Below are positions 4,915 to 29,060 of a stretch of 41,781 nucleotides of DNA, piece by piece (within the stretch, counting starts at the first letter, position 1; each line of letters begins with the position of its first letter). A program made the translations under genes and the position numbers. Origin of the DNA: Dehalococcoidia bacterium (GTDB lineage Bacteria > Chloroflexota > Dehalococcoidia > DSTF01 > JALHUB01); the NCBI GenBank assembly GCA_022865685.1, contig JALHUB010000251.1:1-41781 (forward strand). The letters are read 5' to 3'. The notes below the pieces were generated by a model. It was given only the letters and a program-made list of their open reading frames with translations. It ran no database searches and was not told the origin of the DNA.

Positions 4915-7900
4915 TTGACCGGACTCATGGCAGTCTCTGACGAGCCGAAGAAACCCGCCGTAAGCGTGCAGATATCGTACGCCGGGGTTGTCGCCTGGCT
5001 GAAGACGAACTGGCCCCGGTATTGGGAGCTGAGCGTCTACGCGCTCATCATCCTGGTTGCCGCCGGCCTGCGCTTCTGGGACCTCGGCTCGCGCGCCATC
5101 GGCCACGACGAGAGTTCGCATGCCCAGTATAGCTGGTACCTCTACAACGGCGGCGGCTACACCCATGACCCGATGATGCACGGGCCGTTCAAGTTCCATG
5201 CTGTTGCCCTTATCTGGAAGGGGCTCTCCTTTCTGAGCTCCGCTCCTTTCCTCAGCAACTTCGCGCACTGGGGTCCCGGCGACTACACGGTGCGCATTCT
5301 TGCCGCGATCTTCGGGACGGCGCTCGTCGCGCTGCCGTACTTCTTCCGGGGTCACATCGGCCGGGTGGGCGCGCTCTTCGCCGCTCTTTTCCTCGCCTTC
5401 TCGCCCGTCCTGCTCTTTTTCAGCCGCTTCATCCGTGACGACGTTATCGTCGCCTTTTATACTCTGGCCGTCGTCATCTGCATCTGGCGGTACCTCGCCG
5501 AGCGGCGCAACCTGTACCTCTATCTGATTGCGGGCCTGCTTGCTCTTGGCTTTACCACCATGGAAGCCACCTTCCTGACCTCGACGTTGTTCCTCATTTA
5601 CCTCGATCTGCTCCTCGCCTGGGAGATCCTGAGTCGCGTGCGAGAGCGCATGGAGGTCAGAACCGACGAATCCCAAAAGGCGCCGGATGCGAAATCATCG
5701 CGCCGCGCCAGGAAAAAGGAGATGCCGCCCCCGGCGCCGCAGCGGCAGCCTCCAATATGGCAGTGGGCCCTCACCTTCATTTGCCTCGTGCCCGTGGCCT
5801 GGCTGATCGCTGCCTCCTGGCCTTTTACCGGCAAGTGGCGCGCTCGCTGGGGTCTTGACGATCTGCCTCTCTCCGGCGACCTCCTCATAATCGTGGGGAC
5901 GTTTGCGGGTGTGCAGTTCGCCGCCGGAGTGCAGTTGCTGCCCTTCATTGGCGACAAGGGCTACTACAAGGATGTCGCGGGCAGCGAGGACACACTGATG
6001 AAGATGACGGTGTTCATGCTCCTCGCCGTCTCTGCCTACATCGGCCTGCTCTGGCGACCGCGAACCTGGCTCATCGCCGCCGGCATTTTCTACGCTATCT
6101 TCGTCCTTCTCTTCACGACCTTTTTCACCAACCTCGGTGGCTTCTGGTCGGGAATCTGGGGTTCCTTGGACTACTGGCTCCAGCAGCAGGCCGTCGGACG
6201 CGGCAACCAGCCCGTCTACTACCCCTTCATGATACTGTCGATGTATGAGTTCCTGCCCCTGGTCGTCGCCTTGGCCGGCGGGTTGTGGTTCCTATTGCGA
6301 CGGCAATTTCTCCTGTCGCTCTCCGCGGTGCTCGCTGTCTGCGCCATGGTGTTTGTCTTCTTCACACTCGGCGCATCGCTGGCAGGGATGGTCGTCGTGC
6401 TCGCGGTCTTCGGGGTGGTGCTCTTTGCCCTCCGGCAGGACCTCTTCACCACGTTCCTCATCTTCTGGGCCGTTGGATCGGCCATCGAATTCGCGACCGC
6501 CAGCGAGAAGATGCCGCAACACACCATCTATATGACCCTACCTATAATGGTTCTCGCCGCCAAGTTCCTCGACGGCCTTTTCGAACGATTCCGCGTCTCA
6601 CTGCCACTTCGCTGGCGCAACCCGGAGATGTTTGTGCTCCTGGCCGCCGCCGCCGGTGCCCTATCGATAATCATTCTTTGGACGAGCGCGTTCTCATCGA
6701 CGGGGGCAGTCCTCGCCCTCATTCTGGGCGTCGCCGCCGCCGGCCTGATCGTGCGGGCCATCACCCTTCACGGCGGGCTCCTCGGCGCCCAGACAGCGGC
6801 GGCGCTCGTCATTCCCGCCCTGTTCATATTCACCGTCCGCGACGGCATCCGCACCAACTTCGACCTCGGCACGTGGCCACGGGAAATACTGTCCTACGCC
6901 GACGCGTCGCCGGGCATTCCCCGGGCCCGTGACCAGTTGGTAGGCCTCGCCAACCAGAGCGGCCTTGGCAGGGACTACCCCATCGTGGTGGACTTAGATC
7001 TCGCCTGGCCGATGTCCTGGTACATGCGCGACTATAAGCCGCAGTGGCCCAGCGGCAGCATGGCGCCGCCGATTGCCGGGAGCCTGGTCATACTCAAGAA
7101 CGAGAACCAGTCCTGGATGGAGCCCTACCTCGACCAGTACTACGCGCCGGTGCCAATTAGACACCTGTGGTGGTTCGGCGACGGCCCGCAGTACTACGAG
7201 GGCATCACCGCCGGCGGCTTCGCGGAGAGCCTCTTCGACAAGAGCGTCTGGAACGTCTGGCGCAACTACTTCGTCTGGCGTGACGTGCCCTGGCAGCCGC
7301 CGCCGGACGACGCGTTGGTGTACATCCCGAAGGAGCTCGCAACCGCCGGTGGGACCGCGCTCACGCCGCCGCCGTCGATCCCGACCGTCATGGTCGCGCC
7401 GGAGAGCCGGACGGTCATCGGCGAGGGGGAGCTCAACTCCCCGACAGACGTGAGCGTCGACGCTTCGGGCAACATCTACGTGTCGGATAGCAAGAACAAC
7501 CGTATCCAGGTGTTCGACGGCTCCGGCAAGCCGCTGCGGACGCTCCAGCCTACCGGCGACGAGGCTTTCGTAGAGCCGTGGTCGGTCGCTGTCGGCGCTG
7601 ACGGCAGCATCTACGTCTCAGATACCTGGCACTATGGGATCACCGGTCGTATCGCTAAGTACGATGCTGACCTCAACCCGCTGTGGGCGACGGAGGAATC
7701 GGGAGGCCCGTATGGCCCGCGCGATGTCCTCCCGTTGCCGGACGGCAGCCTCCTCGTCGCCGACACGGGGAATAAGCGCATCCTGAAGCTCGGGCCGGGC
7801 GGCGACACCATCGCTACCTTCGGCAGCAACGGCTCCGCCCCCGGCCAGTTCAACGAGCCGGTCGGCCTGGCGCTTGGTCCCAACGGCGACATCTACGTCG

Positions 7901-15817: not shown

Positions 15818-17542
15818 ATGGCGTCGATGAACCACCCCAGCGCCATCCAGAAGCTGTCGCCCCAGGTCATCGGCAAGATCGCCGCCGGCGAGGTCATCGA
15901 GCGACCGGCCTCCGTGGTCAAAGAGCTCGTGGAGAACTCGCTCGACGCCGCGGCCCGTCTCATAACCGTCGAGATCGGCAGAGGCGGGCTCGACCTGATC
16001 CGGGTCAGCGACGACGGCGGTGGCATCGCCCCGGACGAGCTGCCGCTGGCCTTCGAGCGCCACGCCACGAGCAAGCTTCTGACCGAGCACGACTTGGAGC
16101 GCGTCGCCACACTGGGCTTTCGCGGCGAGGCCCTCCCTAGCATCGCCGCCGTCGCGGAGATCGAGATCGCGTCGCGCCCGGCGAACGCGGCGTCGGGCGC
16201 CCTGCTGCGACTCAGAGAGGGCGAGGTTGTCGAGCAGGGCGAAAAAGGGATAGCGGCCGGCACCATTATCGCCGTCAGAGGCCTGTTCAGGCGCCAGCCT
16301 GCCCGGCTCAAGTTCCTGCGCTCGCCCGCCGCCGAGGCCGCCCAGATCGCCGGCGTCGTCAGCCATTACGCGCTTGCCTACCCCGAGGTACGCTTCGTGC
16401 TCCTCGTCGACGGGCGTCTCACGCTGCAAACTCCCGGAAACGCCGATCTCCGCGATGCGGCGGCCGGCGTCTACGGACACCAGGTCGCGCAGGCGCTCTT
16501 GGCGCTGCCCGTCGACGCAGGACCGGTCGACCCGCCTGCCGTCATCGGTCTCGTAGGCGAGCCGGGGCTGTCGAGGGCTAACCGCAACTATATAACGCTG
16601 TTCATCAACAGACGCTGGGTGCGCAGCCGCACGCTCACGTATGCCGTCGAAGAAGCGTATCATGGCTTCCTCCTGACCGGCCGCCACCCGCTCGCCATCG
16701 TCGACATCCGCCTGCCCGCCGCCGACGTCGACGTCAACGTTCACCCGTCGAAGCTAGAAGTCAGACTGCGCAACGAGCGCGAGGTGTTCGCTCTCCTCCA
16801 GCGCCAGGTGCGACGCACGCTCACGCAGAGCGCACCTCTGCCCGCCGTCTCCGCGACGACCTGGGCCGGCGGGGCGCGCCGGCATCCGCCCGTTCCGCGC
16901 TTCGAGCCTGCGCCGCTCGCCCTGGAGACGGCGCTACTCGCACCCGCCGCCGAGCAACCACGACTGGCGCCGCCCGCGCCCGTCATGCGGGCGCTTGGTC
17001 AGGTCGGGATGGTTTACATCGTCGCCGAGGGCCCCGAAGGGCTGTACCTCGTCGACCAGCACGCTGCCCACGAGCGTATCCTGTTCGAGCGCTTCCTCGG
17101 GACCGGCGGCGCCGCGGTCGACGCGCAGGGGCTGCTGGAGCCGGTCGCCGTCGAGATCGCGCCGCGTCAGCAGGCGTTGCTGACGGAGATGGCGCAGGAG
17201 CTGTCGGAGCAAGGCTTCTCGCTGGAGCCGTTCGGCGAGGGGACGTACCTCGTGCGGTCCGTTCCCGCCGTGCTCAAGGACAAGGACGTTGCGACGACAC
17301 TCGTCGAGTTCCTGGACGCCCTTGCCCGCGAGGAGGCCGCGGCCGACCGGCGGCAGCGCGTAGCGATGTCGCTCGCCTGCCACGCTGCCATCCGCGCCGG
17401 GCAGTCGCTCAGCCAGGAGGAGATGCGGGAGCTGCTGCGTCAGTTGGAGCAGACGGAGAACCCCCGTCACTGCCCGCACGGTCGGCCAACGATGATCCAC
17501 ATGAGCGCCGACGCGCTCGCCCGCGAGTTCCGCCGTCGCTGA
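15818..17542 (+). CDS. mutL: DNA mismatch repair endonuclease MutL
   Basis: GHKL ATPase N-terminus IAAGEVIERPASVVKELVENSLDA. C-terminal endonuclease motif DQHAAHERILFE (DQHAxxExxxxE) and CPHGRP. Start at ATG 15818 or 15827 rather than the track start 15764. Confidence 0.92.
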   Translation: MASMNHPSAIQKLSPQVIGKIAAGEVIERPASVVKELVENSLDAAARLITVEIGRGGLDLIRVSDDGGGIAPDELPLAFERHATSKLLTEHDLERVATLGFRGEALPSIAAVAEIEIASRPANAASGALLRLREGEVVEQGEKGIAAGTIIAVRGLFRRQPARLKFLRSPAAEAAQIAGVVSHYALAYPEVRFVLLVDGRLTLQTPGNADLRDAAAGVYGHQVAQALLALPVDAGPVDPPAVIGLVGEPGLSRANRNYITLFINRRWVRSRTLTYAVEEAYHGFLLTGRHPLAIVDIRLPAADVDVNVHPSKLEVRLRNEREVFALLQRQVRRTLTQSAPLPAVSATTWAGGARRHPPVPRFEPAPLALETALLAPAAEQPRLAPPAPVMRALGQVGMVYIVAEGPEGLYLVDQHAAHERILFERFLGTGGAAVDAQGLLEPVAVEIAPRQQALLTEMAQELSEQGFSLEPFGEGTYLVRSVPAVLKDKDVATTLVEFLDALAREEAAADRRQRVAMSLACHAAIRAGQSLSQEEMRELLRQLEQTENPRHCPHGRPTMIHMSADALAREFRRR

Positions 17543-17709
17543 TGCTGCACCGGGTCGTCGGTGCTCCCTTGCAGATTGATCGTTTCCCCTCCACCGTGCG
17601 GTGCCAGGCTGCGTTCCTATCGGAGATCCCTCGCGGCCCGACGCCACACTGCTCCAAGCGATTCTAGGTTGCGAGACTGCTATCCTTCGCTCGCATTCCT
17701 AAGGGTTTT

Positions 17710-17746
17710 CCCCTAAAGGATTCCCCTACTGCCGCCGAACATTACT
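17710..17746 (+). promoter_or_regulatory. Conserved 37-nt upstream motif, copy A (before the CAP-domain gene)
   Basis: CCCCTAaAGGaTTCCCCTACTGCCGccgAACattACT. Aligns with copy B at 26258-26294. Lies 60 nt upstream of ATG 17807. Confidence 0.4.
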
Positions 17747-17806
17747 GTGGCAGGCCTTGCGCTTGCCCTGTCAAACACCCTTCAGAAGAAAGGACCCGCG
17801 GCGTAG

Positions 17807-18676
17807 ATGTCCGTGCGACCGAACCGAGCCGTGAGAACAACAGGGACCCGTCCCGGTGGGATGGCCGGATCGCTCCTCATGGGTGCGGGCATCGCCTTCC
17901 TTATCTTCTCGTCGGCGCTGTTCCTGGGCCAGGGCCCGGTCGCGGGCAGCGAGGAACCGCTCGTCCGCTCTTCCGGCACCACGGAGACCGGCGACACCAT
18001 TATCCTGCTGGCAGCGAAGGGCCCCGCCTTCGACACGGCTGACGCGCGTCTCCTGCGGCTGGAGAAGGCGCCCGTTGCCCCTATCGTCGTCGCGCAGCCG
18101 CCGCTGATGCCCGCCGAACAGCCGGCCGCCGAGCCGGTCGTCGCGCCGCCCTCGCCGACGCCGTCTCAGCCGCTTCCTGTCGTCGCTCCCGTGCAGCCGG
18201 CGCCCACGTCGACGCCGTTGCCGCCACCACCGACTGAACCACCACCTCCACCGCCGCCGGCGGTCGAACCGGCGACGCTCACTACCTTCGAGGCGGACAT
18301 CCTGGCGGGCGTGAACAAGGAGCGCGTCGCCGCGGGCCTCGCGCCGCTACAGATCGACGCCGCGCTCGTCGCTGTTGCCCGTGAGCGCTCCGCCGACATG
18401 GTCCAGCAGGGTTACTTCGGTCACGTAAGCCCCAGCGGCGAGACCGCCTTCTTGCTCCTCGACCGCTACGGCATCCCCTACGGCTGGGCCGGCGAAAACC
18501 TCGCGCGCAACAACTACCCTGATGAGGAGTGCGTCTTCGTCGCCGTGCGCGATTGGATGGCCAGCGAGGGCCACCGCGAGAACATCCTGAACGTCCACTA
18601 CACGGCCATAGGCGTAGGCGCGGCCGTCGACTCATCGGGGATGAAGTACTTCACTCTCGTCTTCACCGGCCCCTAA
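17807..18676 (+). CDS. Membrane-anchored CAP/SCP (YkwD-like) domain protein with Pro-rich linker
   Basis: N-terminal TM helix (LLMGAGIAFLIFSSALFL), a Pro/Ala-rich spacer (PPPPTEPPPPPPPA), then a CAP domain: ILAGVNKERVAAGLAPL...GYFGHVSPSGE...HRENILNVHYTAIGVG. Confidence 0.8.
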   Translation: MSVRPNRAVRTTGTRPGGMAGSLLMGAGIAFLIFSSALFLGQGPVAGSEEPLVRSSGTTETGDTIILLAAKGPAFDTADARLLRLEKAPVAPIVVAQPPLMPAEQPAAEPVVAPPSPTPSQPLPVVAPVQPAPTSTPLPPPPTEPPPPPPPAVEPATLTTFEADILAGVNKERVAAGLAPLQIDAALVAVARERSADMVQQGYFGHVSPSGETAFLLLDRYGIPYGWAGENLARNNYPDEECVFVAVRDWMASEGHRENILNVHYTAIGVGAAVDSSGMKYFTLVFTGP

Positions 18677-18846: not shown

Positions 18847-20193
18847 TCAGAGGTCCACGAAGTAGAAGCTACACGCGATGTCGATGAGCTCCGGTCGCAG
18901 CTCTGGGCGCTCCCCGCGGTAGTTGGTGATAGACTCGATAAGCTCGACGATGTCGCGCGGATGGCAGCCACGCAGGGGCCGGTTCTTCGCGCCGTAGTGC
19001 TTGTCCATGAGGTATCGCAGCGCTTCTTCCGGGCAGGCGATCTCCTTGGACTCGCACACCTGCCGGAAGATGTGCTCGAAGTGGCACTGACTGGGGTCGG
19101 GCATCTCGATCTTGTGCCGAATGCGACGGAAGAAGGCCTCATCCCCAAGCTGCCGCGGCGGGATATTCGTCGAGAATACCAGCAATAGGTCGAACGGCAT
19201 GACGATCGTATCGCCGGTGTGCAGCGTCAGGTGATCGACGCCCTGCTCAAGGGGCACGATCCAGCGGTTCAGCAACTCCTTCGGCTCAATGAGCTGCCGC
19301 CCGAAGTCGTCGATGACGAGTACGCCGCTGTTCGCCTTGACTTGCAGCGGCGCTACGTAGAACTTGGACACGTCCGAGTAGCGAAGCTCCAGGTCCTGCA
19401 GACTGAGCGACCCGCCGGCCATCACCACCGGCCGCAGCGTCCTCACCCAGCGATGGTCGCGCCGCCGCTCGTCGGGCAGGCTCTCCAGAGTGCCGTCGCT
19501 CCGGCGGTCCGGATCCGTCTCATCCGGTATCTCGGCGTGCACGCGCGGGTCAAAGACCTTGATGATATGGCCGTTGTACTCGAACGCGTATGGGATTAGC
19601 ACCTGTCCCGGCAGCATCCGGCCGATGGCGCCGGCCGCGCTGCTCTTACCGTTACCGGAATTCCCATATAGCAGCATCGACCGGCCCGAATTGACGGCTG
19701 CCCCGAGCGCGTAGAGCGTCGTGTCGTCGAGGACGAGGTGCGCCAGCTCCTTCTTCTCGATATCGCTGTCAATGCGCAGGCCGCGCACCGACTGCCGGTG
19801 CTGCACCTCCACGTACTGCTCGAAAGCCACCGGCGCCGGTCCGTTGTACTGGCAGCGGCGCATCACCTCCTCCGCCTTCTCCATTCCCTTGACGGTCAGC
19901 GCATACTTGTACTGCGACTCGCCTGTCCCGCCGCTCCCCACTACCTCCACGTACTGCTCCCGCTTGAGGAAATCGAGAAGCTCCTCTACCACCGGGAAGG
20001 GCAGCATCATGTGGGCGCTGATCTGGCGCGCAACCGGCCTCCCCGCGAAGTAGATGCACTTGATGCACAAGTCGAGGAGGAGACCGGAGTGCAGCCCCGT
20101 CTCTTCGACGCTTTGCGGTTGGGAAATGAAGACGGTCGGCGGCGTGCTGTGGTGGTCTCGCTTAACCTCGATACCGACCTCGACCTGCTCCAT
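18847..20193 (-). CDS. AAA+ family ATPase of unknown function with N-terminal winged-helix-like domain
   Basis: Walker A LLYGNSGNGKSSAAG, Walker B VLVIDDFGRQ, sensor-1-like VFSTN, and Arg-rich FFRRIRHKIEMPDP. The N-terminal ~110 aa look like a wHTH (RQISAHMMLPFPVVEELLDFLKREQYVEVV). ATG 20193 has a GGAAGAGGAG SD, whereas the track start is TTG 20223. Confidence 0.7.
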   Translation of the reverse strand: MEQVEVGIEVKRDHHSTPPTVFISQPQSVEETGLHSGLLLDLCIKCIYFAGRPVARQISAHMMLPFPVVEELLDFLKREQYVEVVGSGGTGESQYKYALTVKGMEKAEEVMRRCQYNGPAPVAFEQYVEVQHRQSVRGLRIDSDIEKKELAHLVLDDTTLYALGAAVNSGRSMLLYGNSGNGKSSAAGAIGRMLPGQVLIPYAFEYNGHIIKVFDPRVHAEIPDETDPDRRSDGTLESLPDERRRDHRWVRTLRPVVMAGGSLSLQDLELRYSDVSKFYVAPLQVKANSGVLVIDDFGRQLIEPKELLNRWIVPLEQGVDHLTLHTGDTIVMPFDLLLVFSTNIPPRQLGDEAFFRRIRHKIEMPDPSQCHFEHIFRQVCESKEIACPEEALRYLMDKHYGAKNRPLRGCHPRDIVELIESITNYRGERPELRPELIDIACSFYFVDL

Positions 20194-20349
20194 CAGCTCC
20201 TCTTCCTGATTCGATCCGCGCAATAGCTAATGCGTAGACGGAGCCCGTCGCCGGGGTTGAGCCCGATGACCGGCAAATTGAGTATCGTATGAAAGCGTCG
20301 GCTTCTGAACAGCAAGGGCTTTCTCATAGCATTCGGCCCGTGGCCGTCG

Positions 20350-20826
20350 CTAGCCGGCGAGCAGGAGCTCACGCGTCAGATCACCCCAACTGAACATGAC
20401 CGTAGAAAGCCAGCGCGACGATTCGAAATACCCCGCGGCCCGCCATTGCTCCATCAGTTGTGTCAGTGTCGCAGGGACCGGCCCATCGGCGTAGAAATCG
20501 CTCGGCCGCAACACACCGAAGCTGTGGCGTACGGTCTCCTCGCTTTCCCCGCCGACGAGGCTGAGGGCCATCGTCACGTAGTCCAGCCCGTATGGGCGGC
20601 GCATCTGCGTCATCGTCGCGCGACACCATTGCAGAACGATGGAGTCGAGCTCGTCGGGTCGAACGGCCGTTGCCGGTTCGCCGCCCAGCTCCCAGCACAT
20701 GTGGTAGACTCCGACGCCCGCCTCAACGGCGTCCCGGACCTTCGACTCCGCCGACCCCTGTCTCAGCCGTCTTATCAGTGAAGCGAGGATCATGTTCCCT
20801 TGAACGGCGGGACCGCCCATGCGCAT
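20350..20826 (-). CDS. Hypothetical protein (158 aa), no recognisable domain
   Basis: Codon usage and third-position GC look coding. Co-directional with and 126 nt upstream of the AAA+ ATPase gene. No motif recognised. Start uncertain (20826 or 20793). Confidence 0.5.
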   Translation of the reverse strand: MRMGGPAVQGNMILASLIRRLRQGSAESKVRDAVEAGVGVYHMCWELGGEPATAVRPDELDSIVLQWCRATMTQMRRPYGLDYVTMALSLVGGESEETVRHSFGVLRPSDFYADGPVPATLTQLMEQWRAAGYFESSRWLSTVMFSWGDLTRELLLAG

Positions 20827-20950
20827 GCCCGCGACCCAACCTGGGCCGGCGCGGCGTCGCGAAAGGGCGTCCGTTTGAATTATCGGCAGAGGCGGGAGGA
20901 CGCTTCAGGTGCGGGCGCGTCGCAAGGCGCGAAGCTGGAGGGGAACAAGA

Positions 20951-21007: not shown

Positions 21008-21085
21008 CTAGGCAACAACGGCGACAAGCGCAATGACAGCCAGGGGGACGATACCCCAGGTGCGGAGAAGTGCCGTTCCTTTCAT
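21008..21085 (-). CDS. Possible 25-aa hydrophobic peptide (MKGTALLRTWGIVPLAVIALVAVVA)
   Basis: ATG preceded by GGAGTCAGGG. Single TM-like segment, followed by its own hairpin terminator. Below the ORF-track size cutoff and found by reading the minus strand. Confidence 0.35.
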   Translation of the reverse strand: MKGTALLRTWGIVPLAVIALVAVVA

Positions 21086-21243
21086 CCCTGACTCCTGTTC
21101 ACCCGATTGCCGGCTTCGCTTGATCGCCGTACGGCCGCATTTGAGCGGCCGTCAGCCGGGCCTCATGGCCCTAAGTCCTTGCTCTGTGCCCTACTAGAGC
21201 AGTTATTCGTTTCAGGGTCTTCCGGTTCGGTCGACCTTTCTTG

Positions 21244-22752
21244 TTACTCCGTCCGGCGGCGAGCCAGTCGCAGGCCGCTCAGCAGCAGCACAATGCCGCC
21301 CGCCGACAGGAGCACGCCGAAGATCGTCGGCCCTGACGGGGAGCCACCGCCGCTACCGGTGGGGGGCAGCTTTACGATCTCCAATACCTCAGTCACGGGC
21401 GTCGGCGCAACGAGCGTGGGTGCCGCTGTCGCCGTCGGCGCAGGCGTGCGCGTCTTGGTCGGCGTAGCCGTGTGGTGGTGCTCCTCAGTCGCCGTCGGCG
21501 GATGAGTGGCCGTCGCCGTAGCGGTAGGCGTGTCCGTTGGCAACGGAGTGGACGTCCCTGTCGCCGTTGGGGTGAACGTCTCCGTCGGCGGTGGCGTGAA
21601 GGTACGCGTTGCCGTCGCCGTTGGTGTCGCCGTCGATGTCGATGTTGGCGGTGGCGTGTAGGTACTGGTTGCCGTCGCCGTTGGTGTCGCCGTTGGTGTC
21701 GCCGTCGATGTTGGCGTCGGCGTGAAAGTGCTCGTTGCCGTCGCCGTTGCCGTCGCCGTAGGTGTCGCCGTCGATGTCGCCGTCGGTGTCGGTGTGAACG
21801 TGTTAGTAGGCGTTGCCGTACTGGTGTTGGTCGGCGTTGGCGTGAACGTGCTAGTCGGCGTCGCCGTCGGTGTATCCGTCGGCGTCGGTGTCGGCGTCGG
21901 CTGCACAATGGTGTTGGCCTGCATCTGGTTGTCGCGCTGGCCGATAGACGTGCCATCAAGCTCGACAGTCGCCACGTGGTACGGAGAGCCCGAGATCTCC
22001 GCAGCGCCTTTGCCGGTCCCCCAGTCGGCTTGACTGGCGACGTGGGCTCCCCAGGTAATCAAAACCTCACAGGTCGTCACGCCCTGTTTTGTGACCGGGT
22101 TAGCGCAGGTGAAGGTGTCGACGGTGAACGTCAGTTGAACGGTCGTTTCGCTATCCCCGGCGTAGCTGCCGCTAGCGAGCGTGGGCACGCCCACAACATC
22201 GATTGTCCCGTTGCGGATATAGAAGTGTTGGTCGCCAGCAGCGGTGTCAAACCCGTTGGCGTTCGGATCCGCCGGGATTGGCGGAGACGGGTTGGCAGTT
22301 AGTGTGCTGCAAGAAGCGAGATTGGTGATGGGAGGGTCACAGAAGTCAGCGGCCGTAATCCAGTCTTCCGAAAACAGGGGGTCCGTCAAGAAGTCGTACG
22401 CGTGCTTCCCGCCCTTCGTCGTGCCGTACGAGATGGTGACGGTGTGGGTACCGGTTATCAGTCCGTCGATCGCCAACCGCTGGACTGTCGCCTCCCCCTC
22501 CCTATAGAGGGAGTTGTTGTGCTGCAGGTTGCCATTGATCCAACGACAACCTGTGTCGCCGGTCGTGTAGCCGGTCCCTTGATCGTTCGAGCACTGGGAG
22601 TACAAGTCGATGCCGGCCTCGCCCGCTGCGACTGCCTTGCCGGGTCCGCTCCTACTGAGCGACACGAACAGAGCTAGTGCAGCGGCTGCAACGATACCGA
22701 GCAATAGCATCCAGCCTACACGGGTGCGTCCCATTTGAAATAGATCATTCAT
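21244..22752 (-). CDS. LPXTG-type (LPPTG) sortase-anchored surface protein with Thr/Pro-rich stalk
   Basis: N-terminal signal/TM ([19 protein letters not shown]) and a ~240-aa Cys-containing domain of unknown family. A ~170-aa TPTxT low-complexity stalk follows. The C-terminal sorting signal is LPPTG + [16 protein letters not shown] + [16 protein letters not shown] before ATG 22752. Confidence 0.85.
21397..21903 (-). repeat. Imperfect tandem coding repeats (Thr/Pro/Ala-rich stalk)
   Basis: Reiterated GTCGGCGT/GGTGT-type units on the plus strand encode (T/A)PT(A/S)T repeats. They also generate the Arg-rich shadow ORFs 21393..21959 and 21472..22302. Confidence 0.8.
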
Positions 22753-23257: not shown

Positions 23258-23696
23258 AGAAAAGTCATGCCATGCTTTCGTTCTGGGAGCGTGGGATGGG
23301 AGGGGCCGAGCCATTCGGCCTGCGCCGCCAATCCGGCCACAAGAACCGTGATCGCGGCTCACGCCCCCCGAAAGCAGGGACACAGGCGACCCTATTGCCT
23401 GCTAGCATGGTTGCCCATGCTCACTTCTCGGAGGCTTCTTCTCTTGTCCAGGTGCCTGGCCGGACGCGATCCAAAACGGGGCGCCGCCCATTGCCCTTCC
23501 CGCCTAGAGCGGGTTTCCAGGCTGAGCCCCTACGCCTCCTTGCGAATTACAGGCCAGCAGGAAAAGGGTCGACAATAATGCTGAAAGAGCCTCAAGCTCC
23601 TGACGACTGGCCTCTTCCTTTAGGCCGGAATCAACGCCATGTTGTCACAACAGATGAGAGCTTGTCAAGTGGCCCTTTCTAACCACTCTGTCAGTA

Positions 23697-24086: not shown

Positions 24087-26201
24087 TTGGCGCTCAGAAT
24101 CGCATCGATCGCTGCCGCAGCCGTCGGGATCGCCGCGTTCGCATCCACTCTGACGGCCGGCGCGCAGGAGGCCAACGGCGTTACCGTCGATGTCGCCAGC
24201 GTGGACGGCAGCCGCTTCCCCAGCCTGTCCGCCGTTGTCAACGTCCTCGACGCTAAGGGCCGCCCCGTCGCCGGCCTCGACACCGCAAGCTTCAGCGCCA
24301 CGATAGACGGCCGGCCCGCAATCGTCGAAGGACTCCAGTCCGTCGTCGACTCGCAGGTCAGCCTCTCCGTCGTCCTGGCCGTCGATGCCAGCGGCAGCAT
24401 GGCAGGCACACCGCTGAGCGCCGCACAGTCGGCCGCCGCGGAGTTCGTGAATGGCCTTTCGCCCCAGGACTCCGTCGCCGTCCTCGCGTTCAGCGACACC
24501 GTGACGGCCGTCCAGGAGCCGACGCCGGACAAGGCGACGGCCATCGGCGCCCTTCAAAACCTCACCGCCGCCGGCGATACGGCGCTCTTCGAGGCCACGA
24601 GCCGTGCCGCGGCCAAAGCCCTCGAATCGTCGTCACCGCGGCGCGTCGTCATCCTGCTGAGCGACGGCGTCGACTACGGTGGCAAGAGCAGCGTCACGCG
24701 CGACGACTCCATAGCCCAGGCGCGGGCCACCGGCGTTCCCATATACACCATCGCCCTCGGCGCCGAAGTCGACAAGGCCTACCTCAACGATCTGGCGCAG
24801 GCCACCGGAGCTCGTTTCCTGGAGGCACCCAGCCCGGAGGGTCTGTCGCAGCTCTACGCTGGCATCGCCGCCGTCCTGCGTGGCCAGTATGTCGTCGCGA
24901 TGCAGTCCCCCGCCGTCGACGTCGCGGCTTCACATGAACTCGAGCTGTCTGTCACCGTCGGAGGCACGACAGCCGTTGCCTCGAAAAGCGTCGCGTTTGC
25001 CGCGTCTGGCCAGTCCTCCCAGGTGACGCTCGAGGGGATTCGCTCCGGCGAAGATGTGAAGTCCGCCGTCACCGTCACCGCCCGGGTAAACGGCGGCGCG
25101 CCGACCGAGGTGCGCTTCCTCGTCGACGGAACGGCGGTGGCAACCGCTACGGCTCCTCCATACCAAGCGGCTCTCGATCCTGCCGCGCTGGCGAACGGAA
25201 ATCACACCCTGCGGGTCGAGGCAAGGGACGCGACAGGGATCCTGGGGTCTTCAGAGATCGGCTTCGCGGTCCCAGCCGCCGCGGCAGGCGGGACCAGCAA
25301 AGTGCCGCTGTTCGCGGCGCTTCTTGCGGTCATGGCGGCGACGGTGGTCATCTACGTATTGCGCCGGCGGCGCCCCCGTGTGAAACGACAGGTGGTCGAG
25401 GTGCGCCTGAAACCGTGGTCGAACAACACGCTGGTAGCGGGCAGCGTGTCGCTGGTCGACGAGGAGCCGGTACCCCCGCCGGCGCCCGAGCCCGTTGGGC
25501 GGCCCGGCGGCAAGCTGATCATCGTCGATGGACCTGACGCCGGCCGGGAATACCCCGTCGGCATGAGCCCCCTCAGCATCGGCAGCGCAAGCTGGTGCGA
25601 CATAACGTTCCCCGATCCGGACGAGCGCATAGGACCCGAAGAAGCGCGGGCCTGGGTCCACCAGGACAAGCTGATCTTCCACAAGTTGACGCGGCTCTCG
25701 CTCCTCGCCAGCGATGGGGCGGTCGGCGGCTGGCTCGTCCTGGAAAACGGTGACGAGGTGAACGTCGGCCACTTCCGGCTACGCTTCATCTCGCTGGCGC
25801 ACACGGCGGCGGAGCAAGACGTCCTCAACAGGGCAGTGAACGAAGCCGTGCAGCACCTCGCGGGCCGTGCCTCGGGTGGCGGAGTGGCCTCCCGGCTCTG
25901 GCCCGTTCACGACCTGCCCCCGCAGGCGCCCCAGGCCGAAGAGATGGGCCCGCAACTCGCCCCGTTCGAGATCGTGCCTGTCGACAACCCGCCGGTCGAA
26001 GCGCCCGAATCGAGAGAAGAGAACCCCGAGCCCGCACGTCCCAGGCTGTGGCCCGTCGACGACCCTCCCGTCGATTTGGCGGAGTCGGAAGACGTGGCCA
26101 ATCAACCCGATCCGTTCGAGCTCTGGCCCGTCGACGACTCGTCCGGCGAGCTGCACGGGCGAGAGGAAGATTCCGAACATCCGGCTGCCGCCTCCGTCTG
26201 A
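24087..26201 (+). CDS. Single-pass membrane protein: signal peptide, extracellular vWA + Ig-like domains, TM helix, cytoplasmic FHA domain, acidic repeat tail
   Basis: Signal AAAAVGIAAFASTLTAGAQEA. vWA MIDAS VLAVDASGSMAG...GDTALFEA...VILLSDGVDYGG. TM helix VPLFAALLAVMAATVVIYVL followed by RRRRP. FHA-like segment GKLIIVDGPDAGREYPVGMSPLSIGSASWCDITFPD...NGDEVNVGHFRLRF. Four C-terminal WPVDD-type repeats. Confidence 0.85.
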   Translation: MALRIASIAAAAVGIAAFASTLTAGAQEANGVTVDVASVDGSRFPSLSAVVNVLDAKGRPVAGLDTASFSATIDGRPAIVEGLQSVVDSQVSLSVVLAVDASGSMAGTPLSAAQSAAAEFVNGLSPQDSVAVLAFSDTVTAVQEPTPDKATAIGALQNLTAAGDTALFEATSRAAAKALESSSPRRVVILLSDGVDYGGKSSVTRDDSIAQARATGVPIYTIALGAEVDKAYLNDLAQATGARFLEAPSPEGLSQLYAGIAAVLRGQYVVAMQSPAVDVAASHELELSVTVGGTTAVASKSVAFAASGQSSQVTLEGIRSGEDVKSAVTVTARVNGGAPTEVRFLVDGTAVATATAPPYQAALDPAALANGNHTLRVEARDATGILGSSEIGFAVPAAAAGGTSKVPLFAALLAVMAATVVIYVLRRRRPRVKRQVVEVRLKPWSNNTLVAGSVSLVDEEPVPPPAPEPVGRPGGKLIIVDGPDAGREYPVGMSPLSIGSASWCDITFPDPDERIGPEEARAWVHQDKLIFHKLTRLSLLASDGAVGGWLVLENGDEVNVGHFRLRFISLAHTAAEQDVLNRAVNEAVQHLAGRASGGGVASRLWPVHDLPPQAPQAEEMGPQLAPFEIVPVDNPPVEAPESREENPEPARPRLWPVDDPPVDLAESEDVANQPDPFELWPVDDSSGELHGREEDSEHPAAASV
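25893..26156 (+). repeat. Four ~25-aa acidic repeats within the vWA-FHA protein tail
   Basis: RLWPVHDLPP (aa 603), FEIVPVDNPP (627), RLWPVDDPPV (653) and FELWPVDDSS (677), each followed by a Glu/Asp-rich stretch. The Trp/Val positions are spaced 25 aa apart. Confidence 0.75.
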
Positions 26202-26257
26202 CCCGTAGGACAGCCTCCCTTACTCTCGCAGTATCGCCTCGAATCCCTACGCATAAA

Positions 26258-26294
26258 CCCCTACAGGCTTTCCCCTAGCTGCCGATAACTAACT
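26258..26294 (+). promoter_or_regulatory. Conserved 37-nt upstream motif, copy B (before the ECF sigma gene)
   Basis: CCCCTAcAGGcTTTCCCCTAGCTGCCGatAACtaACT. Aligns with copy A at 17710-17746. Lies ~80 nt upstream of GTG 26374. Confidence 0.4.
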
Positions 26295-26373
26295 TAGGCG
26301 AACCCCCTAAGGGATACCGCCTACGGGGGAAGCACTACAACGTATCGCTACTCCGTCCTGTGGGGTTAATGCG

Positions 26374-26940
26374 GTGCTCAAACTCGACATACCGCCGGTG
26401 ACCGACGAGAGGATGCTCGTGCAGCGGGCGATTCTTCACGACAGTGAAGCCTTCGCCGGGCTCTACGATCGTCACGTCGTCCGCGTCTACCGGCACATCT
26501 ACTACATCATCAATGACCAGAAAGAGGCTGAAGACTTAACCGCCCAGACCTTCCTCCAGGCCTGGGAGGCGATCGGCCGTTTCCAACCTAGGGGTGCTCC
26601 CTTCGCATCGTGGTTGCTGCGCATCGCTCACAACCTGGCGGTCAGTCATCTGCGCGCCCGGAAGGGGGATGCGCAGCTCCACGAGTCACTTATCGACGAC
26701 GGCCTGCCCCGCAATCCCGAAGCAGTGGCCCAACGCCATGCCGAAGAGGAACGGGTCCGTCAGGCCGTCCTGCGCCTCGGCGACGACCAGCGGCAGGTCA
26801 TCATCCTGCGCTTCGTCGAGGAGCTGGACTATAAGGAAGTCGCCGAGATTCTCGGCAAAAGCGTGGCTGCGGTGCGCGTAATCCAGCACCGCGCCCTGTG
26901 CGCCCTGCGCAAGATCATGAAGGTGGAAGAGGTTGCCTAG
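26374..26940 (+). CDS. ECF-type sigma-70 family RNA polymerase sigma factor
   Basis: Region 2 (FAGLYDRHVVRVYRHIYYII...AEDLTAQTFLQAWEAIGRF...SWLLRIAHNLAVSHLR) and region 4 HTH (QRQVIILRFVEELDYKEVAEILGKSVAAVRVIQHRAL). Confidence 0.9.
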   Translation: MLKLDIPPVTDERMLVQRAILHDSEAFAGLYDRHVVRVYRHIYYIINDQKEAEDLTAQTFLQAWEAIGRFQPRGAPFASWLLRIAHNLAVSHLRARKGDAQLHESLIDDGLPRNPEAVAQRHAEEERVRQAVLRLGDDQRQVIILRFVEELDYKEVAEILGKSVAAVRVIQHRALCALRKIMKVEEVA

Positions 26941-27196
26941 CATCATCGAGGCGCTAGCCGATTGCCTGGAAGCCATGCGTGGGGGCGTGGAAATGGAGGT
27001 ATGTTTGGCGATGTACCCGGAGTGTCGCGCCGAACTGAAACCGTTACTGCAAATCGCGAGCCTCCTGCGGCCGCTGCCGCCGGAGATAACACCGTCGTCC
27101 GTCTTCAAAGAACGCACCAGGGTCCAGATCCTGGAGCGCCCCGAGGGACAGGACGGGACGTCGCTCGCGCCGGACCGGCCGTCGGGGAAGTTCTGA
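26933..27196 (+). CDS. Putative short anti-sigma factor (no TM segment)
   Basis: TTG start overlaps the sigma stop by 8 nt, with GGTGGAAGAGG upstream. IIEALADCLEAMRGGVEMEVCLAMYPECRAELKPLLQIA resembles the N-terminal helical domain found after ECF sigmas in Chloroflexi and Firmicutes. Only 87 aa, with no membrane or sensor part. Confidence 0.5.
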   Translation: MPSIIEALADCLEAMRGGVEMEVCLAMYPECRAELKPLLQIASLLRPLPPEITPSSVFKERTRVQILERPEGQDGTSLAPDRPSGKF

Positions 27197-27423: not shown

Positions 27424-27612
27424 ATGCGTTTCATTAATGACACCCTTCTCCGGCTTTACTGCTGGGCGAAGGACGAGACGGCCCAGACGATGGCCGAGTA
27501 CGGCCTGATCCTGGCCCTGATTTCGGTCGCCGCCATTGCCGCCCTGGTGCTCTTGGGGCCGCAGCTCAGGGCTATCTTCGACAGGATCACGGCAGCGCTA
27601 CAGGTGGCCTAG
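27424..27612 (+). CDS. flp: Flp-family type IVb prepilin (copy 2, 62 aa)
   Basis: AGGAGG SD at 27412-27417. ...KDETAQTMAEYGLILALISVAAIAALVLLG... is the Flp motif plus a hydrophobic helix. Confidence 0.88.
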   Translation: MRFINDTLLRLYCWAKDETAQTMAEYGLILALISVAAIAALVLLGPQLRAIFDRITAALQVA

Positions 27613-27630
27613 GGCGCTTCGCTGCAAACC

Positions 27631-27668
27631 CGAAAGGGGTGGGGAGGACCTCCTCCCCACCCCTTTCG
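27631..27668 (+). terminator. Strong hairpin after flp2
   Basis: CGAAAGGGGTGGGGAGG-acct-CCTCCCCACCCCTTTCG, a 17-bp perfect stem starting 19 nt after the flp2 stop. No U-tract follows. Confidence 0.6.
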
Positions 27669-27803
27669 ATCCCGATCGGGGCAACCACGCCATCGACGGA
27701 TCTGGAACCTGCGACAGGAATCCTTCCATCGGTCGATAATCAAAAGGGTAGCCGAAACCAGGAACCGAGTTGACGGTAGTAAGGCAGCCTATCATGTCGA
27801 AGG

Positions 27804-28053: not shown

Positions 28054-28238
28054 CGGGGCGTCGTGGGAACCTGGGCGCGAATCTTCGGGGGAAGGCGGCG
28101 CATCGTGTTTCGGGGGTCAAGGCTTACCCATTGTGGCCGATACTCTTATAGGTGAGCTTGCCCAGCACTTAACCTGGCATTCGCTCCGACCGCGCTCGTA
28201 GCGGCGGGACGCTGATGCAGCAAACTGGAGGTAGCCCC

Positions 28239-29060
28239 ATGGCTAGAGCAGGAGCCGGCGGGTCGGTAGGTAGAATCAATGGTCGCTTCGCGCTGCTGAC
28301 CATCGTATGCGGGATCCTCAGCGCCGTCCTCGTATACGCCGCCATCGCGCGCAACGGCGGCGCCAAGCAGACCGCGTCCGCGGAGACGACAGCCGCGACC
28401 GTCATCGCGGCTGTGGACATCCCGGCGCGCACCGAGATCACCGCCGAGATGGTCGAGCTGAGAGACGTGCCGGTCAGCGGAAGGGCAGCCATGGCCCTCA
28501 GCAGCATCGACGACGTTGTTGGCAAAGTGACGCGGTACCCCGTTGTCCTCGACGATCAGCTAACTCTGAGCAAGGTTGTCTCGGTGGACGGAAGCGAAAA
28601 CGTCGACTCCCTCGCATTCGTGGTGCCGGATGGAAAGAGAGCCATCTCCATCTCCGCTGACCAGGTGCTCAGCGCCGGCGGCCTGGTATTGCCGGGGGAC
28701 TACGTTGACATAATGGGCGTTCTCTCCGGAACAAAGCCGGATGGCAGTGAAGTCGACAACTACGTCGTCAAGACCATCCTCCAGAACGTGCAGGTGCTTG
28801 CCGTGGCGCAGACCATCGCCGACGCGCCTGCCGGCGGAGAAGCCACAGCGAGCGACGGCCAGAAGGGTAGCAGCTCAGAGTCCAAGCCGAACCCCGAGGC
28901 GACGACGCTGACCATTCTCGTCTCGCCCGAGCAGGCCCAAACGCTGTTCTTGGCTGAATCCAACGGCACTCTGCGAGCAGTCGTTCGCGGCTACGGCGAT
29001 GCGAACGTGACGGAGCTGGCGCCCATCTATCAGAACCAGCTCACGCCGCCAGTGCCTTAA
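28239..29060 (+). CDS. cpaB: Flp pilus assembly protein CpaB/RcpC
   Basis: GGAGG SD before ATG 28239. N-terminal TM anchor (FALLTIVCGILSAVLVYAAI), SAF domain (VIAAVDIPARTEITAEMVELRDVP) and RcpC-type C-terminal domain. Confidence 0.85.
   Translation: MARAGAGGSVGRINGRFALLTIVCGILSAVLVYAAIARNGGAKQTASAETTAATVIAAVDIPARTEITAEMVELRDVPVSGRAAMALSSIDDVVGKVTRYPVVLDDQLTLSKVVSVDGSENVDSLAFVVPDGKRAISISADQVLSAGGLVLPGDYVDIMGVLSGTKPDGSEVDNYVVKTILQNVQVLAVAQTIADAPAGGEATASDGQKGSSSESKPNPEATTLTILVSPEQAQTLFLAESNGTLRAVVRGYGDANVTELAPIYQNQLTPPVP

Follow-up and report, generated by a model that had tools for sequence, protein, structure and literature searches.

A two-block promoter-like motif associated with a BldN-like ECF-type sigma factor gene, a CAP-domain protein gene and a Tad pilus locus in uncultured Chloroflexota

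The hallmarks of ECF sigma factors are a protein built of regions 2 and 4 only, promoters with AAC in the -35 and CGT in the -10 element, a co-transcribed anti-sigma factor and positive autoregulation (PMC8103513). Approximately half of these sigma factors autoregulate, and their promoters have been identified by looking for bipartite elements ahead of the sigma genes themselves (PMC7776599), in effect the approach taken here. Other forms of the -10 element are documented, e.g., the actinobacterial sigmaD promoters read GTAACA/G-N16-CGAT in M. abscessus, as determined by ChIP-seq, and GTAACA/G-N17-18-GAT in C. glutamicum (PMC13537577). In Streptomyces, sigma-BldN drives genes for cell-surface structures within a c-di-GMP-controlled circuit (PMC6101532, PMC7826278). 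Our full-text search of the literature returned no paper tying Tad pili to control by an ECF sigma factor, except one unrelated review. Here, we describe a motif that precedes a BldN-like ECF-type sigma gene, a CAP-domain protein gene and the first gene of a Tad assembly operon in a lineage of uncultured Chloroflexota.

The window, i.e., the whole stretch of 41,781 nucleotides that was analysed, is contig C221 of a draft genome (G000) of 2.06 Mb with 65% G+C, 329 contigs and 92.6% completeness. A sequence-only reading of the window had pointed out a 37-nt motif in two copies, A (17710-17746) and B (26258-26294), upstream of a CAP-domain gene and an ECF sigma gene, respectively. The sequences of both copies were as that reading gave them, and both lie on the coding strand, A ending 61 nt before the CAP start codon (17807) and B ending 80 nt before that of the sigma gene (26374). 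The gene identities also held, with PF00188 matched by the first product and sigma regions 2 and 4 by the second. The pattern CCCCTA-N6-12-CCCCTA occurred twice in the window, where 0.01 occurrences would be expected, and four times in the 2.06-Mb genome, while the triple pattern CCTA-N9-10-CCTA-N9-10-CCTA was confined, genome-wide, to the loci of copies A and B. Local alignment of the two intergenic gaps scored 31, compared with 17.0 ± 2.2 for dinucleotide shuffles, none of which (0/500) reached 31, and the similarity ran ~23 nt farther upstream than first described (17687-17734 vs. 26234-26284).

For comparison, we used a set of ~40 related genomes in five families (f1-f5), all of them uncultured Chloroflexota MAGs from peat and soil that are labelled Dehalococcoidia or Chloroflexia. 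The sigma gene was present in 41 of the 41 relatives searched, as was the CAP gene (41/41), and the two are syntenic across the order at a distance of ~9 kb. Since all 41 relatives carry both the sigma gene and the motif, their co-occurrence is uninformative within the order. Upstream regions of the sigma gene were taken from 38 genomes representing the five families. These genomes are non-independent samples, and the relatives' sites were chosen with the matrix itself, for which same-locus nulls and training without the window's genome provide a partial control. Local triplet shuffles served as the background for matrix scans. On this footing, the analysis established the anatomy, conservation and genome-wide specificity of the motif and its association with one sigma clade.

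Only two blocks were conserved among the ~40 related genomes, namely (cc)CTnAAG and, following 14-15 free bases, GCCGAT(A). Counted in the ECF manner, this is TnAAG-N16/17-CGAT, a -35/-10 layout. Over 81 orthologous sites, information was concentrated in (cc)C-T-n-A-A-G, in (c)T-G-C-C-G-A-T-A-c-T and in a patch rich in G near +15, and the 14-15-nt spacer held ~0 bits of information and no covariation. The GCCGA core was invariant (81/81). The last two positions of the AAG core of the -35-like block were A in 72/81 and G in 77/81 sites; at the sigma gene, the core can also read CAG or TAG. Neither block repeats or complements the other. The motif is strand-specific: its intergenic sites are all on the coding strand, and a start codon follows at a distance of 20-300 nt. 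By gene, all 38 of the sigma-orthologue upstream regions, from five families, carried C-T-n-n-A-G, 14-15 nt and GCCGA[T/A], and the CAP orthologues of f1, f3, f4 and f5 carried CTnAAG-N15-GCCGA[T/A/G].

This anatomy departs from that of the sequence-only reading, which had proposed two direct CCCCTA half-sites. The first CCCCTA[A/C]AG is the -35-like block, and the second CCCCTA belongs to the spacer, where only f1 CAP promoters conserve it and most sigma-gene orthologues lack it. The register of the CTGCCG element that the reading had also singled out was 3 nt off in copy A, where the conserved block, GCCGAA (17734-17739), aligns with GCCGAT (26281-26286) of copy B. A proposed weaker relative upstream of flp1 (23527-23551, CCCCTAC-N12-ATTACA) scored -1.7 bits on the motif matrix and is no instance of the motif. 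The CCCCTAC word also occurs in a REP-like perfect hairpin, GTAGGGGCGCACGGYCGTGCGCCCCTAC, found on at least two contigs of the genome (C66 ~1900-1960 and C276 ~1310-1340) and unrelated to the promoter motif.

To the exclusion of all other positions on both strands of the 2.06-Mb genome, the top three matches to a two-block matrix made from other genomes' sites only were window sites: 17705-17743 (+) at 31.1 bits, 20878-20916 (-) at 28.2 bits and 26253-26290 (+) at 25.7 bits, with the next match at 21.6 bits. Using a four-gene-set matrix, again trained without the window's genome, the window's four sites were the genome's top four (28.7, 27.2, 24.0 and 22.3 bits), and they lie together in a stretch of 10.4 kb. 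Above 20 bits, the genome had seven sites, compared with 0.7 in shuffles. The three that lie outside this group of four are found at a GGDEF gene (conserved), at a solute-binding lipoprotein gene (conserved at the genus level) and facing a convergent gene; the last of these, a 21-bit site on contig C130, faces the 3' end of that gene and was set aside as probably spurious. A further candidate, on contig C116, is at a contig end. The exact IUPAC pattern CTNNAG-N14/15-GCCGAT, searched in five genomes, barely exceeded its control (36 vs. 28 matches in G000) and is therefore uninformative; the weighted matrix alone discriminates. Since the assembly is fragmented and incomplete, the list of targets is a minimum.

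The sigma-gene site (26253-26290, +; 25.7 and 24.0 bits by the two matrices) consists of CTACAG at 26261-26266, a 14-nt spacer and GCCGAT at 26281-26286. The gene that follows (26374-26940, +) encodes a BldN-like, ECF-type sigma factor of 188 aa with Sigma70_r2 and r4 only (PF04542 and PF04545/PF08281; TIGR02937 at 106.7 bits vs. a cutoff of 42.9). Its best family model was TIGR02952, BldN (ECF121), at 139.3 bits, which is under the equivalog cutoff of 206.45, and its best match in the PDB was 6dxo (E = 7.6e-25). The motif was missing (<8 bits) upstream of 23 distant sigma homologues with 41-52% identity from other orders of the class, and the six other sigma-70-family genes of the genome also lacked it, scoring at most 9.9 bits vs. 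24.0. Three of the distant homologues (L134, L145 and L146; 42-50% identity) show an apparent canonical ECF promoter, GTAAC-N16-CGT, upstream, at the place of TnAAG...GCCGAT in this order. This comparison hints that promoter specificity changed at the base of the order. In one relative (G038), only residues 58-183 are matched by the sigma copy that is in synteny with CAP and cpaB, and its open frame has 136 aa (G038:C1:158890-159267); a non-syntenic sigma copy with 57% identity (L080) lacks the motif; the sigma factor may be decaying in this lineage.

Overlapping the stop codon of the sigma gene by 8 nt, an ORF of 87 aa (26933-27196, +) encodes a candidate anti-sigma factor or other partner. 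The ORF is translationally coupled to the sigma gene in f1, where the same 8-nt overlap was present throughout and the ORF measures 81-90 aa, and it was not found outside f1 by the criteria used. Its AlphaFold model is helical, with a pLDDT of 76. Searches of Pfam and NCBIfam returned no match, and a Foldseek search of the PDB returned no fold match (best E = 5.9), so that the anti-sigma role is putative. In G003 (L004/L043), the ORF is shortened to 51 aa by a frame change, which is either an assembly error or a loss of the partner. Downstream of the sigma gene and this ORF, with no terminator between, is a Flp pilin gene (27424-27665; PF04964) that ends in a strong, GC-rich hairpin at ~27630-27665. 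Transcripts that begin at the promoter-like site at 26253-26290 may cover both the sigma gene and the pilin gene. A weaker candidate site follows the flp2 terminator (27704-27741, +; CGACAG-N14-GTCGATAATC; 11.2 and 14.0 bits); a similar sequence, CTGTCGATAATC, occurs in one relative (L008), and the status of this candidate is uncertain.

At the CAP gene, the site (17705-17743, +; 31.1 and 27.2 bits) is formed by CTAAAG at 17713-17718, a 15-nt spacer and GCCGAA at 17734-17739. The target (17807-18676, +) encodes a CAP/YkwD-domain protein that has a membrane or signal segment at its N terminus (PF00188, 6.9e-17; TIGR02909 YkwD, 7.5e-35). A third site, absent from the earlier description, was located on the opposite strand at 20878-20916 (-), with CTGAAG at 20908-20903, a 15-nt spacer and GCCGAT at 20887-20882. 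With 28.2 and 28.7 bits, it is the best or second-best site of the genome, depending on the matrix, and lies 51 nt upstream of the first ORF of a two-gene cassette (18847-20826, -). The cassette encodes a 158-aa protein (20350-20826), for which Pfam and NCBIfam gave no family, and an AAA+ ATPase (18847-20223), for which the only domain match was a weak one to AAA_16. Orthologues in f1 and f5 keep CTGAAG-N15-GCCGATA[A/C]T, and f3 keeps the GCCGATA block. A terminator with an 11-bp stem (20980-20951) directly precedes the third site. No promoter of the sigma70 type (TTGACA-N16-18-TATAAT-like) was predicted in the three gaps tested (0 sites in each), which, along with the terminator ahead of the third site, speaks for the need of a promoter. 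Between this terminator and a 502-aa gene (21244-22752, -), there is a small hydrophobic ORF of 25 aa (MKGTALLRTWGIVPLAVIALVAVVA; 21009-21086, -).

The fourth site (28108-28145, +; GTCAAG at 28116-28121, a 14-nt spacer and GCCGAT at 28136-28141) scored 22.3 bits, fourth in the genome. It is located ~70 nt upstream of cpaB (RcpC/CpaB; 28215-29060, +; PF16976, 5.4e-28), the first gene of the Tad assembly operon. Orthologous cpaB genes were preceded by GGTTCAAG-N14/15-GCCGATACTC in f1 and by CGTAAAG-N14-GCCGATACCT in f4 and f5, at 11-17 bits vs. a null 95th percentile of 7.7. The sequence-only reading had expected the CAP protein and the pilus locus to be linked, and this holds, since cpaB carries a conserved variant of the motif.

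Outside the window, a conserved target is a membrane GGDEF cyclase gene (contig C59 of the same genome, 4797-5891, equivalent to 298-1392 of locus L183; L186-L206 in relatives), with its site at C59 4797-4835 and its start codon at 5052. Each of the 18 f1 loci kept the site, as did f5 (12-24 bits vs. a null maximum of 9.4), and where a relative has both genes on one replicon, 18-26 kb separate the cyclase gene from the sigma gene. Between the site and the start codon, the leader contains an aptamer of the c-di-GMP-I class, which scored 39 bits here, below gathering, and was clear in 14 of 17 relatives (57-88 bits). The layout, with an ECF-type promoter followed by a c-di-GMP riboswitch and a diguanylate cyclase, suggests a feedback loop. 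The site at the solute-binding lipoprotein (SBP) gene, as noted, was conserved within the genus only. The window itself holds another c-di-GMP-I aptamer (RF01051; 23056-23173, -; 64 bits vs. a gathering threshold of 35), ~300 nt upstream of the 502-aa gene, and no motif site was found upstream of this aptamer.

Apart from the two blocks, the hexamers most enriched near these promoters were TAAGGG, CTAAGG, CCTAAG and CCCTAA, with TAAGGG occurring in 33/81 promoter regions vs. 0/81 coding controls. These hexamers are parts of an inverted repeat, CCCT(N1-2)AGGG, whose position varies by gene: -37 at f1 CAP genes, abutting the -35-like block at some cpaB genes, ~+20 at f4 and f5 CAP genes and at both +22 and +38 in f1 sigma leaders; it is absent at the 158-aa gene. 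In the window, it is represented by CCTAAGGG (17698-17705), 4-5 nt upstream of the -35-like block of the CAP gene, where CCCT(T)AAGGG is conserved in f1, and by CCCTAAGGG (26305-26313) and CCTACGGGGG (26320-26329) in the sigma leader, at ~+22 and ~+38 from the -10-like block, a pair conserved in f1. We also considered CCCTAAGGG as a dispersed, genome-wide element and rejected this, since its nine copies fall within the 4-22 of control words and it is enriched only around these promoters. The sigma leader folded no better than shuffles (z = -0.49), and the pair is therefore more likely a DNA-level site than an RNA structure. CCCT(N1-2)AGGG is probably the binding site of a separate regulator; the wHTH-AAA+ protein of 18847-20223 is one candidate among the regulators of the locus. 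The repeat accounts for much of the additional similarity between copies A and B that was first noticed.

In our view, the motif is probably an autoregulated promoter with a non-canonical -35 element that serves a lineage-specific sigma factor of the ECF type, most likely the BldN-like protein of 26374-26940. Promoter function, reading by this sigma factor and the direction of regulation are all inferred here from comparative sequence data. Region 4 of the sigma factor would read the -35 element, (cc)C/G-T-n-A-A-G, and region 2 the -10 element, GCCGAT(A), with transcription predicted to start ~6-10 nt downstream of the latter, near the conserved G-rich patch. Since one copy precedes the sigma gene itself, activation would be self-reinforcing, i.e., subject to positive autoregulation. 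Through the other copies, the sigma factor would at the same time induce a small regulon for surface and adhesion functions, with the secreted CAP/YkwD protein, the cassette of the 158-aa protein and AAA+ ATPase and the cpaB-led Tad operon, along with the membrane GGDEF cyclase with its c-di-GMP riboswitch leader and, in this genus, the solute-binding lipoprotein.

The alternative that survives best, although we judge it unlikely, is that the motif is a promoter read by another sigma factor, either the housekeeping one (acting on a weak -35 and a GATACT -10, perhaps with an activator) or one of the six others encoded in the genome, in which case its position before the sigma gene would reflect a cascade. 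GATACT agrees with TATAAT in four of its six letters, A2 and T6 among them, and its distance from the -35-like hexamer is 17-18 nt; the letters of the motif deviate from the canonical ECF elements (PMC8103513), the -35 being without AAC and the -10 without CGT. However, the TATAAT-type reading leaves unexplained the GCCGA that lies upstream of, and overlaps, the would-be hexamer at every one of the 81 sites. Moreover, ~7 strong sites genome-wide are too few for a housekeeping promoter, and the sigma70 scan found nothing in these gaps. As for the other six sigma factors, none of their genes carries the motif, which tracks one sigma clade and ends where that clade ends.

A promoter also has to be weighed against an operator, in which a regulator, e.g., a response regulator, would bind direct CCCCTA repeats 13-14 nt apart and no core promoter would be involved. 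In this genome, CC(C)CTA is indeed found two or three times in either copy, at 13-14-nt spacing, the spacer CCCCTA is conserved in f1 CAP promoters and CCCT(N)AGGG elements are enriched around these promoters. However, most sigma-gene orthologues lack the second and third CCCCTA units, as do all sites at the 158-aa, cpaB, GGDEF and SBP genes, and what is common to all six gene sets is TnAAG with GCCGAT, which are not mutual repeats. The CCCT(N)AGGG element occurs at variable positions (-37, in the spacer, +20 and +38) and is missing at the 158-aa gene, and is therefore a separate, accessory site. Since the motif comprises two unlike blocks at fixed spacing, is strand-specific and lies in intergenic gaps before start codons, its form is that of a promoter and not of an operator, and we regard the operator as distinctly improbable. 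The sequence-only reading had left a cognate ECF promoter and an operator side by side; the comparative evidence, which is computational support only, favours the former.

That the motif acts solely as transcribed RNA (a leader, riboswitch or sRNA), with no signal in the DNA, seems to us highly improbable. Short complements do follow GCCGA in some CAP orthologues (GCCGA...TCGGC), as do palindromes in some sigma orthologues, but the complements of CAP orthologues (GCC...GGC, beyond the -10) span 3-5 bp and are inconsistent, and several of the palindromes after GCCGAT are loopless and therefore dyads of the DNA type. Rfam 15 gave no match, even at E<=10, for 17540-17830 and chance-level matches only (E >= 1.2) for 26190-26400. 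Furthermore, the two conserved blocks are unable to pair with each other, the spacer that separates them is neither conserved nor covarying and the sigma leader, at z = -0.49, is indistinguishable from shuffles. Lastly, a generic dispersed repeat (REP- or MITE-like), which the sequence-only reading had itself entertained, was excluded, as the full double or triple CCTA pattern is unique to the two loci and six of the seven sites above 20 bits are at conserved promoter positions.

If the promoter is indeed that of the sigma factor at 26374-26940, an uncultured but widespread lineage of soil and peat Chloroflexota gains a regulatory unit of one sigma factor, one promoter code and at least five conserved targets. 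Through it, a secreted CAP-domain protein and an uncharacterised AAA+ cassette would be functionally joined to c-di-GMP signalling and to the assembly of Tad pili. The promoter consensus could then be used to annotate regulons in hundreds of MAGs, and the pairing of a sigma factor with a non-canonical -35 would be directly testable in E. coli reporters. More speculatively, and with considerable doubt, the whole might constitute an order-wide "surface switch" of these uncultured Chloroflexota. A BldN-like ECF sigma factor with a re-tuned code (TnAAG-N16/17-CGAT vs. the GTAAC...CGT of its relatives) would activate itself and co-induce the Tad pilus, the CAP protein, the AAA+ cassette and the riboswitch-gated diguanylate cyclase; c-di-GMP would then feed a second riboswitch within the locus, before a sortase-type surface protein, and a second regulator acting on CCCT(N)AGGG would modulate a subset of the promoters. 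Such a switch would amount to an ECF-driven Tad pilus regulon wired to c-di-GMP, in parallel to the BldD/BldN circuit of Streptomyces but in another phylum.

Among described systems, it is Streptomyces sigma-BldN/RsbN (ECF121) that the sigma factor matches best, both by family model and among solved structures (PMC6101532, PMC7826278), and the surface genes and c-di-GMP circuit of BldN have their parallel here in a putative regulon in which a pilus and a secreted protein stand beside a riboswitch-gated diguanylate cyclase. The case here differs in that the score is under the equivalog cutoff, no N-terminal pro-sequence is evident in the 188 aa and the partner ORF is soluble and, by fold search, unlike RsbN. 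With the autoregulated promoters of ECF (group IV) sigma factors in general, the motif shares a bipartite form with a 16-17-nt gap, near-consensus at every target and placed directly upstream of a sigma gene with regions 2 and 4 only; the regulon is likewise small, and a short ORF is coupled to the sigma gene (PMC8103513, PMC7776599). Here, however, AAG (CAG or TAG at the sigma gene) replaces the canonical AAC and CCGAT replaces CGT, and the anti-sigma factor is a candidate. The sigmaD promoters resemble the motif in geometry and in their CGAT -10, the form here being [C/G]TnAAG-N16/17-CGAT(A), and both are associated with envelope or surface functions. In contrast, their -35 is GTAAC[A/G] as opposed to nTnAAG, they belong to another phylum and have other targets, and by family models the sigma factor described here is not closest to SigD. 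Since CGAT is documented for sigmaD (PMC13537577), a CGAT -10 falls within the known diversity of ECF promoters. With the ECF geometry kept and such a -10 on record, the motif is therefore best placed among ECF promoters, as one with a divergent -35.
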